In this document: piece after piece, positions 51,001 to 63,000 of the stretch
How positions within the stretch are numbered: position 1 is the first letter of the stretch
How the letters are laid out: every line of letters starts with the position of its first letter
Sequence record: KP682392.1
Strand: one strand, 5' to 3'
Length of the DNA: 64,000 nt
Source: Escherichia phage PA52
Made by a program: the position numbers

Positions 51001-54000
51001 AAACAGATGGCGGCGCAACAGAAAGCGCAGAACAAGCAGAATATCGGTACGGGCATTGGTACGGGGGCGGCTATTGGCGCATCCGTTGGTGGTCCTGTTG
51101 GTGCTGTTGCTGGAGCAGTAATTGGCGGCATTGCTGGTTCTTTGTTTTAAGGAGTGGTGAATGAGCGGATTTGCACAGGGGTTACTTGCCGGATTCAGCA
51201 CCGTTGACCAGGCAATGACCCGTCGTAAGGAGCTTGGTCTGCGTGAAGCACAGCTTGCCCGGCAACAGAAAAATAACGAGCGCGATTTTGAGTTTGCGCA
51301 GTCTCAGTTTGAACATAATAAAAACGTTGATCAGCGGAACTTTGATTACAGAGCCAAAGTTGACGACCGTAATTATGCACTGAAGGAGAGGGAGTTTAAC
51401 GCTAACCAGAATTACCGGAATGCGTCACTGGGTATGGAGCAGCAGCGACTCCAGTTGCAGAAATACAACCAGCGACGGCTTGAGTATAACGATATGATTG
51501 CCCATAGCCAGCCACTAATGGAAGCGCTTGGAAAAGCAATTGAGGCTGGCGATCAGGAGGCTGCAACGCGTCTGTTCGGGCAGCTGCCAAAGGGACATCC
51601 ATTAATTCTTATGTCAAACGAAGGCTATGCAGCGAAAGCGGGTCAGGCCGTGATCAACCTGCAAAAAATCTTTGGTGATAAGCCGGACATGGCGATCGAT
51701 TCGCTGAATACCCCGGAAAATCTCGATGTGCTTTCCGGCGTGTTTGCCCCGGAACTACAACAGCGTATTGGCATGCCTGATTCAACCGGGGACAAAACGA
51801 TAAAAGAGGCCAGGATTGGCAGTATCGTACCAGCGCAGCAGGAAGGGTACGTACTTATTGGCCTTGATCTCACATACAGCGATGGCTCCACCGCGCATAA
51901 ACCTGTAACAGAATACGGCAGTGCGCACCCTGATGATCAAACCGTGCTGGCGATACCCGTTGATAAGGCTATCGCTCAGGTCAGGGATCGCAGCAAATTT
52001 GCAGAGATATCGAAAAATTATGGTTATTTTATGCCGAAGCAGCAGGGACTTTCTCTGAAAGAGCTTCAGAAGGGGGCCAGCAACGTAGCGGCGGACGCGA
52101 TCAAGAATGGCGGTAATGCTCAGGCTGCGGTGGATGAATATTATGCTGCGACTGGTTCACAACCGCATCAACAGAAAATTCAGCAACAAAAACTTCAGCA
52201 ACAGGTTATCAACTGGGCGGGAGATGATCCTGATAAGCTGTCATTTGCCAGAAATGTAGCGGCCCGTCAGCCTGAAATGCTGGAACCTCAGAATCAGAAA
52301 TTGCTGGAGAACGGGTATGCGAATTTTCTCCGTATTCAAAAGGCCAGGGGGGAACAGGCCAGAGATGAAAGTGCTTCATCTGCATCTCAGTTTATCCGTG
52401 GACTGAAACAGAATTACGCCCAGTAATTCACGATATTCCATTAATACCATTTCCTGATGCCCGGCCATTGTGCCGGGTTTTTTTATGGAGTCTGTATGGC
52501 CTATTCAGAGGAACAGCGTCCTGAGGCGCAACTCGGTAACCAGAATCGTAACAGCCTGAACATTCAGCAACCCGGCGAAACTGACAGCTATGAAGCATTT
52601 TTCTCTGATCCGAATCGCTGGAAGGATAACAGTACGTCGTTCAGCCTGGGCGATGTATTGCCAACAATGGGTAAAGGTTTCGCCCAGTCCGTCCGGGGAA
52701 CAGGGGAAATGGCCCGTGGACTCGGTGATGCGATGATTCAGAGCCCGGTAAAAACAGGGGCGCGTATTTTAAATGAGTTCAGCCGTATGGGGCTGCCGGG
52801 TGTCGCAACTGTGCAGGATATTTTTGCCGGTGGCAGCAGGGGGGCTGATGAGGTCATCGATACCCTGCCTGATGGCAAAAACGCGGTTACTGATACTGTC
52901 GGTAAAGGTCTGAAGGCAACCGGTAAGGCTGTCAGTGATGGTGCCAAAGCCACTGATGAATGGCTGACCGGTAAGATGTCGCCGGGTGCAGTTCGTGCGC
53001 TGAATACGCCGATGACCGAAGGCTATAATGATTCTGCGGTCTGGGTGGCGAAGGGTGTAAACCTGATTGGTGCGCTTGTACCTGATATGGTTGCTGGCGG
53101 TGTGGCTAGAAAGGTGGGTGATGTCACACTGCGAAAAATGCTGACCGCCGGGCTGGAGAAAAAATACATCGCGGCAGGGATGCAGCCGGAAAGAGCCACG
53201 GCACTGGCAGCAGAAGCTGTCGATAAAAAAATGCCGGATTTATTCCAGGCGGGCCTGATCACCCATTCCACTGTAAGTGCACAGGGGCAGAGTGCAATGG
53301 CGGCAGCAGATGCTGTTCTTAATGCTGATTACTCTGAGCTGGCGCAGTCACCGAAATTTCAGCAGACGTTTTTGTCCATTGACGCCGACCCGCAGCACGC
53401 ACAGCTTACTGATCGCCAGAAAATGGATCTGGCAAAAGAGCGTGTTGCCGATGAGGTGCGCGCGCAGCTGGCAACCGATCCTGAATTGCTGGCTGTGAAT
53501 GCCATGGCGGCAAAACTGGGTGACGCACAACTGTTTAATCTGGTGACACGAGGCACAGCGAAGACCGTTAAAAGCGGCATTGTCAGAAATGCCACGGAAC
53601 AGGGGGCGATTAATGCGGCGCAGGGCGGCTATTCACGCTATCAGGAAAACACGGCATTGCGTGAGACCGCCGGAATGGGTGTGTCACCGTGGGAGGGCGT
53701 GGCTGACGCAACGATCGAAGGTGCAGCCTTTGGTGCTGCGATGGGGGCTCCATTCGGTGCGGTTGCCGGATATCGTGGCAGACGTCAGGCCGCAGAAGAA
53801 ACCGCCATGCGTGATGCTGAAACCGTGCAGCAGGACGACGCAGCCCCGCAACCAGAATCTGTTGATCCGGTGGCGCAGCAGCGTGAATCCATGCAGGGCA
53901 TGAATCGCGAGCAGCTTCTGGAGCAGTATGCTGATGCGGATATGGCAACAGAGGGTGACGCATCCGCAGCTCATCGCCGGGAAGCTGCCAGCCAGTTGTT

Positions 54001-60000: not shown

Positions 60001-63000
60001 AGAGTACTGGAGTATTCCTCTGCCTTACGGGTACAACGTTTTCTTCCTGCTCGGGCATACTGCTGAAGGTGTGGCGGCGGGTGACCTGACGGCGTCCCGT
60101 GCTGCCGGTAATGTTGTTGGTGGTGTGCTTGGTGCATTCAGCCCGATTGGCAGTGAGACGTCGGAAACACTGTCCGGGGCATTGCTGAAAAATGCAGCGC
60201 CGACCATTCTGCGTCCGTTTGCGAACCTTGCCATGAATGAAAACTTCATGGGGGCGCAGATTTACCAGGAGAACATGCCGTTTGGTACACCAAAACCTGA
60301 CAGCCAGCTGGGAAGACGTTCAACGCCAGAAGCGTACAAGGCGTTTGCATCCTGGCTGAATGCGTTCTCAGGTGGCAGCCAGTACCGTCCCGGCGCGGTG
60401 GATATCACACCGGAATCGCTGAAATTCTGGATTGACTATATCTCCGGAGGGACAGGGCGCTTCATTTCCAAAACCACGGATGCGGCGGTGAAATCGCTGA
60501 ATGGTATTGATATACCGGAACAGCAGGTGCCCTTCCTGGGGAAAATTTCGGGGGAGGTGATGCCGTATGCAGACCAGCAGAAGATGTACGACCGGATGAC
60601 AGAGATTGCGCAGTATCACGCAGAGCTGAAGAGTCTGACCGGTGCAGAAAGAACGGCGTTCATTGACGAGAACAACGGAAAATTGTCGATGAACGGGCTT
60701 ATGCAGGATACCCGGAAGAGACTGAAGGATTTGCGTAAACAGCGTGATGCCATTTACGCCGACAGTACTCTCAGTCTGGCGCAACAGTCGGCGATGGTGA
60801 AATCGGTAGAGCGGGATATGAAAATTGCCGTGGATCGGTTTAACCGCGAGTACAACAAAAAAGTGGGAGTGGATTAACAGAAATGGCCCCGTACGGAAGT
60901 GCGGGGCTGATTAAGAAATAAACACTCATTGACCTGTAATAACCGGAGCTATTAACATATAGTCAGAAGAGCATTTCATGTGATACAGAGAGCCGATTTA
61001 TGTTTAATGAAGAAAAAGTTGCGCAAATGGCAGCGTATTTGCTGAAAAAGCATGGCGGATCTATGCGTTTCATTAAGCTGAAGCAGCAACGGTAATGGCG
61101 AATAGCATTTATGAGCAAAATAATCTTGATATGTTATTAGGCGATCTGATGTAACCGGGATGATGTTCACCCCTTATCGCCGGGGAACAATACCGGCAAT
61201 CAGAATTGCGGATGGAACTATTCAGGCCCACGATGATATCGATGAGGAGTTTTTTCAGCCAGTATTGGATGGCTTTCTTATATCCAAATATACGCCATTT
61301 GACATCCTCCACGCCCTGAAGGACGGGGTTTTACAGCGCACCGGATAAGATTCGGTGTTTTGTTGAAAAATACTGTGATAACAAACAGAAAACCCGTCAG
61401 TAAGACGGGCTTAGCAAGCTGGGACGGTTACTTTAATAATTTCAGTGCCTTTACATCCACTTCAACACTGCTCAGGTCTTTATCAATTTCACCCTCAATT
61501 CTTACTTTGTCTTTCGGAGAAACATTCTGACCGGCCCATATGCTGTCATCGATATCCGTGACAATTGTCCCGCTATTGTCACGAAACTCATAACGTTCAT
61601 CACCCACTTTTTTAACGATGCTCCCTTCAAGGATAACCCATGCATCATCCTTCAGTTCTTTTGCCTGCGCTACTGTTGAACGCTCTGCTTCAGGCCCTTG
61701 GAAACCGCCCTGCTGTGCAAAAGCGCCAAAAGACACACCAGAAATAAGTGCTGCAATCAATACCTTTTTCATTCATAGTCCTCTTTCAGAGATGAACATT
61801 CAAACAGCATTTTCAGTATGGTAAAGCGCGGGTGCGTTGAGGATGCCTGACACATCAGAGGTGGCGGGAGATTACTCCCCCGCTTGGTCTCTTACTTCTC
61901 AGATTCGTAGTCTACGAAGACAGCGACCTCCGTCTGACCGGTTCGGATTCGCACCTCGCAGAGGTCTTTCCTCGTTACCAGTGCCGTCACTATGACGGTT
62001 AAACAGATGACGATCAGGGCGATTAACATCGCCTTTTGCTGCTTCATAGCCTGCTTCTCCTTGCCTTTCGGCACGTAAGAGGCTAACCTACATGTGTTCA
62101 GCATGGATTGAGCCTCAGATTAATGTTAAGCGTCTTGCCGGACGCGTAATGTTAACTGGGGCTTTTCTCTATCTGCCGTTGGTGTTCATGCCCGAGGCAG
62201 ATAGCCTCAAGCACCCGCAGCAATTCTACTTAACTCTCCTTTTCCCGCAAACCGTTTTTATCTCCAGCGACAAATCGAATACACAACCAGCACCACCGCC
62301 ATTACTGTTCCTACATTTGCGAATGCTTCAGGCCAGGTCATTGATTCACCTTCTGCTCAATATTTTTAAGGTCATTTTCCGCATACAGTATTGCAGTTCT
62401 TGCTGCCCGCAACCGTGCTTTGGTGTTCTTTTCTTCACGCTCGAGGCTGGCAACAGATTCTCGGAGCTGATCGTGTCTGTTATGAAGCTGTCTAATCTCT
62501 CTCACCACAGCCTCACCATCGTTCGCACACCGCAGAACATACTGAAAAGGGTCCACAACACATCCGCACTGCAAGCACAGGATAACGTGATCCTGTTCAT
62601 GAACCTCAATGGCCCGATGCTTACAGCTCTGTTGTGTGTAGTTTTTTCTGCCAGTTACTGTAATGTTCAGCAGCTTCTCTTCATCGCGCTTTGGCTGCAC
62701 CAGTGTGATGATATTATCGCCTTCATTTTCCATCAGTTCACCTCCTGCGGCGGTTCTGGTAGCGGCATCCAGTGTGACGGTTTCCACGACGCACCAGGAA
62801 TTATCCACCCATCATTAGCGTCAGGATGCCCCGGGATGTAAGTCGCCCACTTCATTCGCCAGTCACCTTTCCTGTCAAACTCCACGGCAACAAGAACGGC
62901 TGTTTTGGTATCCGGCATTCGCTCACTACAACTTATCCAACCATCCGGAGTTACCGGAGAGTTGCCAGACAGCGCATTCTGCAACCGTTCCAGCTTAACG

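Follow-up and report, generated by a model that had tools for sequence, protein, structure and literature searches.

We analysed a stretch of 64,000 nucleotides (nt) from Escherichia phage PA52 (sequence record KP682392.1), referred to here as the window, and in particular its 8.4-kb giant gene, which encodes a protein of 2793 amino acids (aa). This is probably an internal virion protein of the podophages that carry Shiga toxin (Stx) genes, a polyvalent protein of the phage type that is carried inside the head and leaves through the tail during infection. The protein combines a constant scaffold with exchangeable cargo. The scaffold, which is common to many giant phage proteins, consists of an N-terminal module (N-module), a zincin protease of the HExxxH clade (protease 2) and a C-terminal module of 900 aa that contains the LPD38 domain (C-module). 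It most likely provides for incorporation into the head, for exit in an extended state and for an essential function in DNA delivery. The cargo in this case is a cassette formed by LPD5, a CLCA_X-like zincin (protease 1) and LPD1, together with a domain of the ribonuclease (RNase) fold, PBECR or MuF-C. The proteases most likely cleave the polyprotein itself into working pieces, either while it is still in the head or once it has been ejected; host proteins could be cleaved as well.

The polyvalent architecture is directly visible in the domain searches. LPD5, LPD1, MuF_C and LPD38, all with matches exceeding the Pfam cutoffs, are found together with two zincin domains in a single polypeptide encoded among the late genes. 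This agrees with a preliminary description of the same DNA, made from the sequence alone, which had likened the protein to the polyvalent ejected proteins of phages and conjugative elements. The pattern HE..H occurs exactly twice, as HEWFH at aa 1284 and as HEIIH at aa 1551, at the nucleotide positions and in the contexts first reported. With 37 His and 203 Glu in the protein, 0.036 HExxH motifs would be expected by chance.

The protein has been studied in two other Stx phages. In Sp5 (VT2-Sakai) it is ORF80 (ECs1242), which is the same protein (2793 aa, with DNA 100% identical over 8.6 kb). Deletion of ORF80 leaves excision, DNA packaging and normal heads intact, and no plaques or lysogens are obtained; complementation restores them (Mondal et al. 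2016, PMC5155283). In phi24B the homologue is gp47 (2811 aa), which has the same domains, is 99.6% identical over 501 bases at the start of the gene and is encoded by a phage of the same Stx group. According to a 2026 preprint, gp47 was found in purified virions by proteomics, is abundant to judge from the wording used, and is invisible in the cryo-electron microscopy map (bioRxiv 10.64898/2026.04.10.717836).

Conservation among homologues had been set beforehand as the point on which the significance of the HExxH motifs should be judged. For the first motif it was found to be very strong: H1284, E1285 and H1288 are invariant in an alignment of 82 sequences (down to 32% identity), as are R1379 and E1382, both of which lie inside LPD1. 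In the same alignment D1291 and H1263 are conserved in at least 90% of the sequences. Zincins of this clade have a conserved His where core strand 2 ends, and H1263 is a candidate for it; it falls between the two strands assigned by DSSP in the structure model described below. A search with aa 1161-1720 gave 1194 homologues, and the motif reads HEW[FWLM]H[AS]xD[ND]Y in every listed match that spans it; these matches come from many phyla and include identities as low as 32%. The NCBIfam CLCA_X profile, which matches with 148.6 bits over positions 3-245 of 250, spans HEWFH and takes in LPD1. Across 81 mostly stand-alone homologues of approximately 480-900 aa, the boundaries of homology have their medians at aa 903 and 1450. 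Since the block shared with these stand-alone proteins runs from the one position to the other, LPD5, the zincin and LPD1 can be considered as one cassette.

For the second motif, the metal-binding residues are conserved but the HExxH spacing is absent from most of the giant relatives. The protease 2 segment is present in all of the 20 giant proteins examined that share the N-module ('giants'), is nearly gap-free at 33-78% identity and has six invariant residues (H1551, E1552, H1555, E1607, E1614 and R1636). Most of these giants are without any HExxH. Their motif is generally KLRHE[IV]L[AV]HHGL (that is, HExxxHH), with [AV]EE[VI]LAHxAE about 50 residues downstream, and the aligned site in stand-alone relatives is WHE[AT]FH. 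In the lineage of the Stx and Salmonella proteins, a one-residue deletion has produced HEIIHH, which fits both HExxH (with H1555) and HExxxH (with H1556). E1607 and E1614 agree with the Glu that the HExxxH clade carries on the helix after that of the active site.

An AlphaFold2 model of aa 1161-1720 has a mean predicted local distance difference test score (pLDDT) of 76, with high values for aa 1161-1450, moderate to high values for aa 1474-1600 and values from about 66 to 95 for protease 2. Both conserved domains are predicted by this model to adopt the zincin fold, in support of the zincin type that had been suggested for the two motifs. Fold neighbours of the protease region include YbeY, TTHA0227, PPEP-2, minigluzincins, Wss1, Spartan and IrrE; there is no wall hydrolase among them. 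No relative of the giant protein was found among solved structures, either by phmmer with the whole protein or by profiles of three of its regions.

The MuF_C domain matches its Pfam model (PF18819) with 64.2 bits compared with a cutoff of 27.6. One His, an AxH and the Ser of ASVYG are kept among relatives down to 39% identity. The 2017 study of Iyer et al. places MuF-C among the PBECR RNase-fold domains and not among peptidases (PMC5512222). MuF-C is not the metallopeptidase of this protein and, by this classification, has an RNase fold instead; it may also possess RNase activity. The preliminary description had supposed that additional enzymatic or anti-defence domains might be hidden in the protein. 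The first part of this is borne out by the RNase-fold domain but the second is not: none of the anti-defence or defence models (PADLOC) matched the giant protein.

The division into scaffold and cargo is based on comparison of the giants with each other. In an exhaustive search, a profile of the N-terminal 460 aa gave 106 matches, and more than 60 proteins with lengths of 2000-4665 aa were hit in their N-terminal 100-430 residues. The match is always N-terminal. A word-indexed search with the same 460 aa returned E. coli and Salmonella relatives only. The N-module corresponds to no Pfam model and has no relative among solved structures. Six of the giants that carry it were scanned with Pfam and include a methyltransferase with ddrB-ParB, a Sno-type helicase, LPD5 with LPD1, MuF_C, and LPD39 or LPD38. 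At the other end of the protein, the terminal 951 aa behave as one module with 230 homologues, several of those listed covering 93-100% of its length at identities down to 33%. The domains that stand ahead of the C-module in these homologues vary (ART-PolyVal, methyltransferases, InPase, LPD3 and MuF_C). Identity is also distributed as a mosaic: one relative is 56% identical in the C-module versus 26% in the N-module, and another 68% in MuF_C versus 19% in the C-module. As judged from these sequence comparisons, a constant N-module, protease 2 and C-module frame swappable cargo. The segment between the N-module and the cassette (aa 441-902) is the least conserved and most gapped among relatives and, from its composition, is probably a disordered linker.

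One of the relatives, from a metagenomic scaffold (L006; 34% identity, with ART-PolyVal and LPD38, at 6280-14368), adjoins a Phage_Tail_Tip gene. Its giant open reading frame (ORF) is interrupted by a run of N at approximately 9600-10000. Because this run breaks the ORF, the gene caller reports only the C-terminal 1455 aa. Many 'proteins' of the giant family in the databases are fragments of this type.

The AlphaFold2 model of the C-module is a confident one (pLDDT 83; predicted template modelling score 0.80) and is mainly helical with one beta region. No global relative was identified in solved structures by Foldseek (best E = 0.06) or by sequence profile. The top Foldseek matches, which are not significant, are nearly all helical membrane transporters (GltPh, Nramp, CLC and SOS1). 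The most hydrophobic 200 residues of the protein fall in the C-module, a weak hint that it may contain membrane-active helices. The Gly/hydrophobic segments noticed earlier near the C-terminus are real but represent only marginal peaks, with no clear transmembrane helix: the best 19-residue Kyte-Doolittle windows reach 1.38 (aa 181-199, near the N-terminus) and 1.22 (aa 2445-2467). The membrane-insertion parts that had been proposed on this basis are therefore not demonstrated.

A further characteristic of the giant protein is that it contains no cysteine in its 2793 residues. In the remaining late proteins of the window there are 48 in 6127 residues (0.78%), so that P is about 3e-10 for finding none in 2793. 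Among the 20 related giants (1982-4665 aa), 18 have none and two have a single one, and the metagenomic relative has none in 2576 residues. We infer that this would suit a protein that has to pass in extended form along a narrow channel and across an oxidising periplasm. Cysteine is also missing from several further virion proteins of the window, namely the homologue of Sp5 ORF79 (421 aa), a 422-aa protein, a 645-aa fibre and the homologue of ORF61 (335 aa).

The positions of the features are collected in Table 1. The gene lies in a stop-to-stop ORF on the + strand (52457..60877), which gives 2793 codons and a stop from the in-frame ATG at 52496. Its extent, its length and its rank as the largest gene of the phage are as given in the preliminary description. 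This was also correct in considering it the last gene of the virion module (the terminase, portal, capsid and tail-fibre genes precede it, and it is the last late gene on the + strand) of a short-tailed phage (classified in Sepvirinae, Traversvirus). Over 8.6 kb that include the gene, the sequence is the same (100% identity) in VT2-Sakai, in many Stx2a phages of the PA series and in the Stx1-converting phage of strain Morioka V526. The gene is present at an identity of at least 90% in 185 phage records, all of Stx-converting or related Escherichia/Shigella phages.

RefSeq labels the product 'LPD5 domain-containing protein' and, in VT2-Sakai (NP_050570, 2806 aa), starts it at the ATG equivalent to 52457, which is 13 codons upstream and inside a hairpin. 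The sequence GGAGTCTGTATGGC is unchanged in four phages (this phage and three others at 80-92% identity), while in the three others the ATG at 52457 is replaced by ATA or ACG. Since GGAG and the ATG at 52496 are invariant and the upstream ATG is not conserved, this comparison indicates that the start codon is at 52496 and that the correct product is the protein of 2793 aa, not the RefSeq version.

Table 1. Features of the giant gene, its upstream region and its product
Feature	Amino acids	Nucleotides	Strand	Basis or remark
Rho-independent terminator-like hairpin, GCCCGGC-loop-GCCGGGT and T-run, separating the ORF79 homologue from the giant gene		52459..52484	+	Hairpin scan
Shine-Dalgarno GGAG (52487-52490) and true start ATG (52496)		52487..52498	+	Conservation across phages
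Coding sequence, polyvalent virion protein (Sp5 ORF80/ECs1242; homologue of phi24B gp47)	1-2793	52496..60877	+
N-terminal module (conserved core about aa 140-470)	1-440	52496..53815	+	Ala/Gly-rich; Gly/Ala-hydrophobic stretch at end
Low-complexity linker	441-902	53816..55201	+	Acidic, Pro/Gln/Glu/Arg-rich composition
LPD5/zincin protease 1/LPD1 cassette	903-1450	55202..56845	+	Pfam, NCBIfam, homology-block boundaries
LPD5 (Pfam)	1051-1200			E = 6.5e-45
CLCA_X-like (NCBIfam)	1182-1437			E = 2e-43
HEWFH, active-site motif of protease 1 (H1284, E1285, H1288; D1291 after)		56345..56359	+	Homologue alignment
LPD1 (Pfam)	1361-1440			E = 1e-23
Zincin protease 2, HExxxH clade	1474-1640	56915..57415	+	Alignment of 20 giants
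HEIIH(H), metal-site motif of protease 2		57146..57160	+	Family alignment
MuF_C (Pfam, PF18819)/PBECR RNase-fold domain	1750-1839	57743..58012	+	E = 1.3e-17
C-terminal module	1888-2789	58157..60862	+	Includes LPD38 and aa 2445-2467
LPD38 (Pfam)	2476-2681	59921-60538		E = 7.6e-48

Several explanations of this protein differ from the one that we prefer. Mondal et al. noted a COG1483 AAA+ match for ORF80. They also proposed a role in tail assembly, because an antibody against the tail fibre (ORF67) did not bind the ORF80-deletion particles, whose heads were normal and filled with DNA (PMC5155283). The protein would then act in morphogenesis as a factor for tail assembly, perhaps as an AAA+ ATPase that consumes energy, and would not be ejected. 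We found this published reading to be unsupported and consider it highly improbable. The ATPase idea was rejected since the 2793 aa contain no Walker A motif ([AG]xxxxGK[ST]), and neither Pfam nor NCBIfam identifies an AAA+ or P-loop domain. In addition, the phi24B homologue is part of the purified virions but lies outside the resolved tail, and relatives of the protein bear typical injected-effector domains. Nor do we favour the idea of an ejection protein that breaks down peptidoglycan with its metallopeptidase and so lets a trans-periplasmic conduit reach the inner membrane. Podophages do need to cross the periplasm, and ejection proteins of the T7 gp16 type bear a wall-degrading domain. 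This is the proposal made for gp47 in the phi24B preprint, which considers it an encapsidated ejection protein, present in virions yet unseen in the map, and lists LPD5, LPD1, LPD38 and a 'MuF-C metallopeptidase domain' (bioRxiv 10.64898/2026.04.10.717836). It is, however, built on a mislabelled domain, since MuF-C has the RNase fold, and here the two zincins map to aa 1182-1450 and 1474-1640. The fold neighbours of these proteases speak against a wall-degrading role and no lytic transglycosylase, lysozyme or LAS-type peptidase domain was found in the giant protein. Peptidoglycan digestion is thus an unlikely function.

The two zincins and the PBECR domain might instead be mainly host-directed effectors, acting on host proteins or RNAs or in counter-defence as P1 DarB or Alt do, with the scaffold alone being responsible for essentiality. 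A host-directed effector role is among the options considered by Iyer et al. (PMC5512222). The PHROG family 'DarB-like antirestriction' matches aa 2351-2681, the cargo of relatives includes a methyltransferase, a helicase, ParB and an ADP-ribosyltransferase, and the LPD5-zincin-LPD1 cassette also exists in stand-alone form in many phyla. Protease 2, however, does not vary among the 20 giants even though their cargo differs, and for this reason a housekeeping role in the polyprotein fits better than a host-specific weapon. The absence of any PADLOC match also argues against counter-defence. We therefore regard a mainly host-directed function as conceivable but rather doubtful. For the proteases, and especially for the cassette that occurs on its own, some host-directed role is possible.

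A number of observations weigh against the head-packaged, self-cutting ejection protein that we prefer. A defect in tail assembly, as the authors of the Sp5 study read their result, is not obviously explained by a purely internal cargo protein, and the missing tail-fibre signal requires an explanation. Since the hydrophobic segments are marginal, the sequence gives no clear sign of a membrane-inserting conduit. Although protease 1 is clearly homologous to CLCA_X by profile comparison, its score lies below the curated cutoff of 260 set by NCBI (NF041907) and it is not a member of the family by this rule. Finally, self-cleavage is not a safe default, because the virion RNA polymerase of N4, which also bears a zincin, is packaged unprocessed according to Iyer et al. 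(PMC5512222).

The region immediately upstream of the giant gene includes the hairpin and the ORF79 homologue. The hairpin stem (52459-52478) has seven pairs, six of which are G-C, and is followed by T7. In phage PhiR12_3 two compensatory changes, G>A and C>T, preserve the stem, and in the Stx2a phages Stx2_EH1965 and Stx2_16002 a one-sided G.U change does so. This indicates that the hairpin is a selected structure. The gene is thus preceded by its own conserved, terminator-like signal, as had been noticed initially. Q normally makes transcription of the lambdoid late operon resistant to terminators and, for this reason, the hairpin may serve to trim expression or to stabilise the upstream message. 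The gene directly upstream (51161-52426) corresponds to Sp5 ORF79/ECs1241. Neither its product nor the small flanking ORFs have a Pfam match. ORF79/ECs1241 is also essential in Sp5, where it has a 'tail' phenotype (PMC5155283), and its homologue and the giant protein may work together.

Elsewhere in the window there are three copies of an IS3-family insertion sequence (IS) of the IS1203/IS629 type, with ORF pairs of 108 and 296 aa, all on the minus strand (44100-45313, 18734-19947 and 25705-26918). The first of these splits the homologue of Sp5 ORF70/ECs1232 into two parts (42837-44060 and 45380-45853). Sp5 needs ORF70/ECs1232 for infectivity, and the present prophage copy would therefore probably not yield infectious particles. 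Of the listed records, only those of the cattle E. coli strains 111 and 112 match the junction between ORF70 and the IS in a single piece with 100% identity. In the region 21925-23507, three transfer RNA (tRNA) genes are located directly upstream of stx2A (22267-23226) and stx2B. ARAGORN identifies these as Met-CAT, Arg-TCG and Arg-TCT; the tRNA called Met-CAT is annotated as tRNA-Ile in the PA45 record.

Stx phages spread the Shiga toxin genes, and the essential giant gene fills about 13% of the genome. The division into scaffold and cargo marks targets for mutation: E1285, E1552, the His and Ser of MuF-C, and the N- and C-modules. The annotation of these medically important phages can also be corrected in that the gene starts at 52496, MuF-C is no peptidase and the protein is not an AAA+ ATPase. 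The polyvalent concept (2017), essentiality (2016), presence in the virion (2026 preprint) and both protease variants are already published. What is added here is a precise location for each of the two proteases, the scaffold-cargo layout, the absence of cysteine, a C-module that is unmatched structurally and the corrections to annotation.

Polyvalent proteins and the LPD domains were defined by Iyer, Burroughs, Anand, de Souza and Aravind (2017), whose work is also the origin of the Pfam models matched here. In their paper, the zincin protease is the hub domain proposed to process the polyprotein, with one phage-type clade in which an Asp occurs three residues after HExxH and another clade with HEXXXH (PMC5512222). 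The PA52 protein resembles those described there in being giant and encoded by a late gene and in having LPDs, a zincin hub and PBECR, and its two proteases match both variants. The N-module, the entire 900-aa C-module around LPD38 and the near-total lack of cysteine were not found in the parts of that paper searched by keyword. The zincin-like family CLCA_X (Lenart et al. 2013) occurs in phages and plasmids and has a conserved Asp behind its HExxH. Protease 1 shares both motif and Asp but forms part of a giant protein, and Pfam assigns its C-terminal portion to LPD1.

The virion RNA polymerase of N4 (gp50, 3500 aa) is another giant protein that a podophage packages in its head and injects together with its DNA. 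Its zincin lies in the region needed for encapsidation according to Iyer et al., who also describe DdrB of P1 as having a C-terminal zincin domain and as being processed (PMC5512222). The PA52 protein differs from gp50 in that it lacks the T7-like single-subunit RNA polymerase module: the Pfam scan of the 2793 aa identified no RNA polymerase family. A weak PHROG match to the N4 enzyme (E = 0.006) covers aa 235-623. A 2198-aa protein with LPD38 from the unrelated phage PTXU04 is essential by CRISPRi-ART. DarB and DdrB of P1, gp14-16 of T7 and gp7, gp16 and gp20 of P22 are head-internal proteins delivered at infection. No similarity in sequence or fold to any solved ejection-protein structure was detected for the PA52 protein. 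T7 and P22 use several separate proteins and, by analogy, a single polypeptide may replace them here. We would suggest, tentatively, that the scaffold could be a cysteine-free DNA-delivery device made of one polypeptide, common to a large and so far unrecognised group of podophage giants. It would do the work for which T7 or P22 uses a multi-protein ejectosome and would carry its cargo as a swappable passenger.

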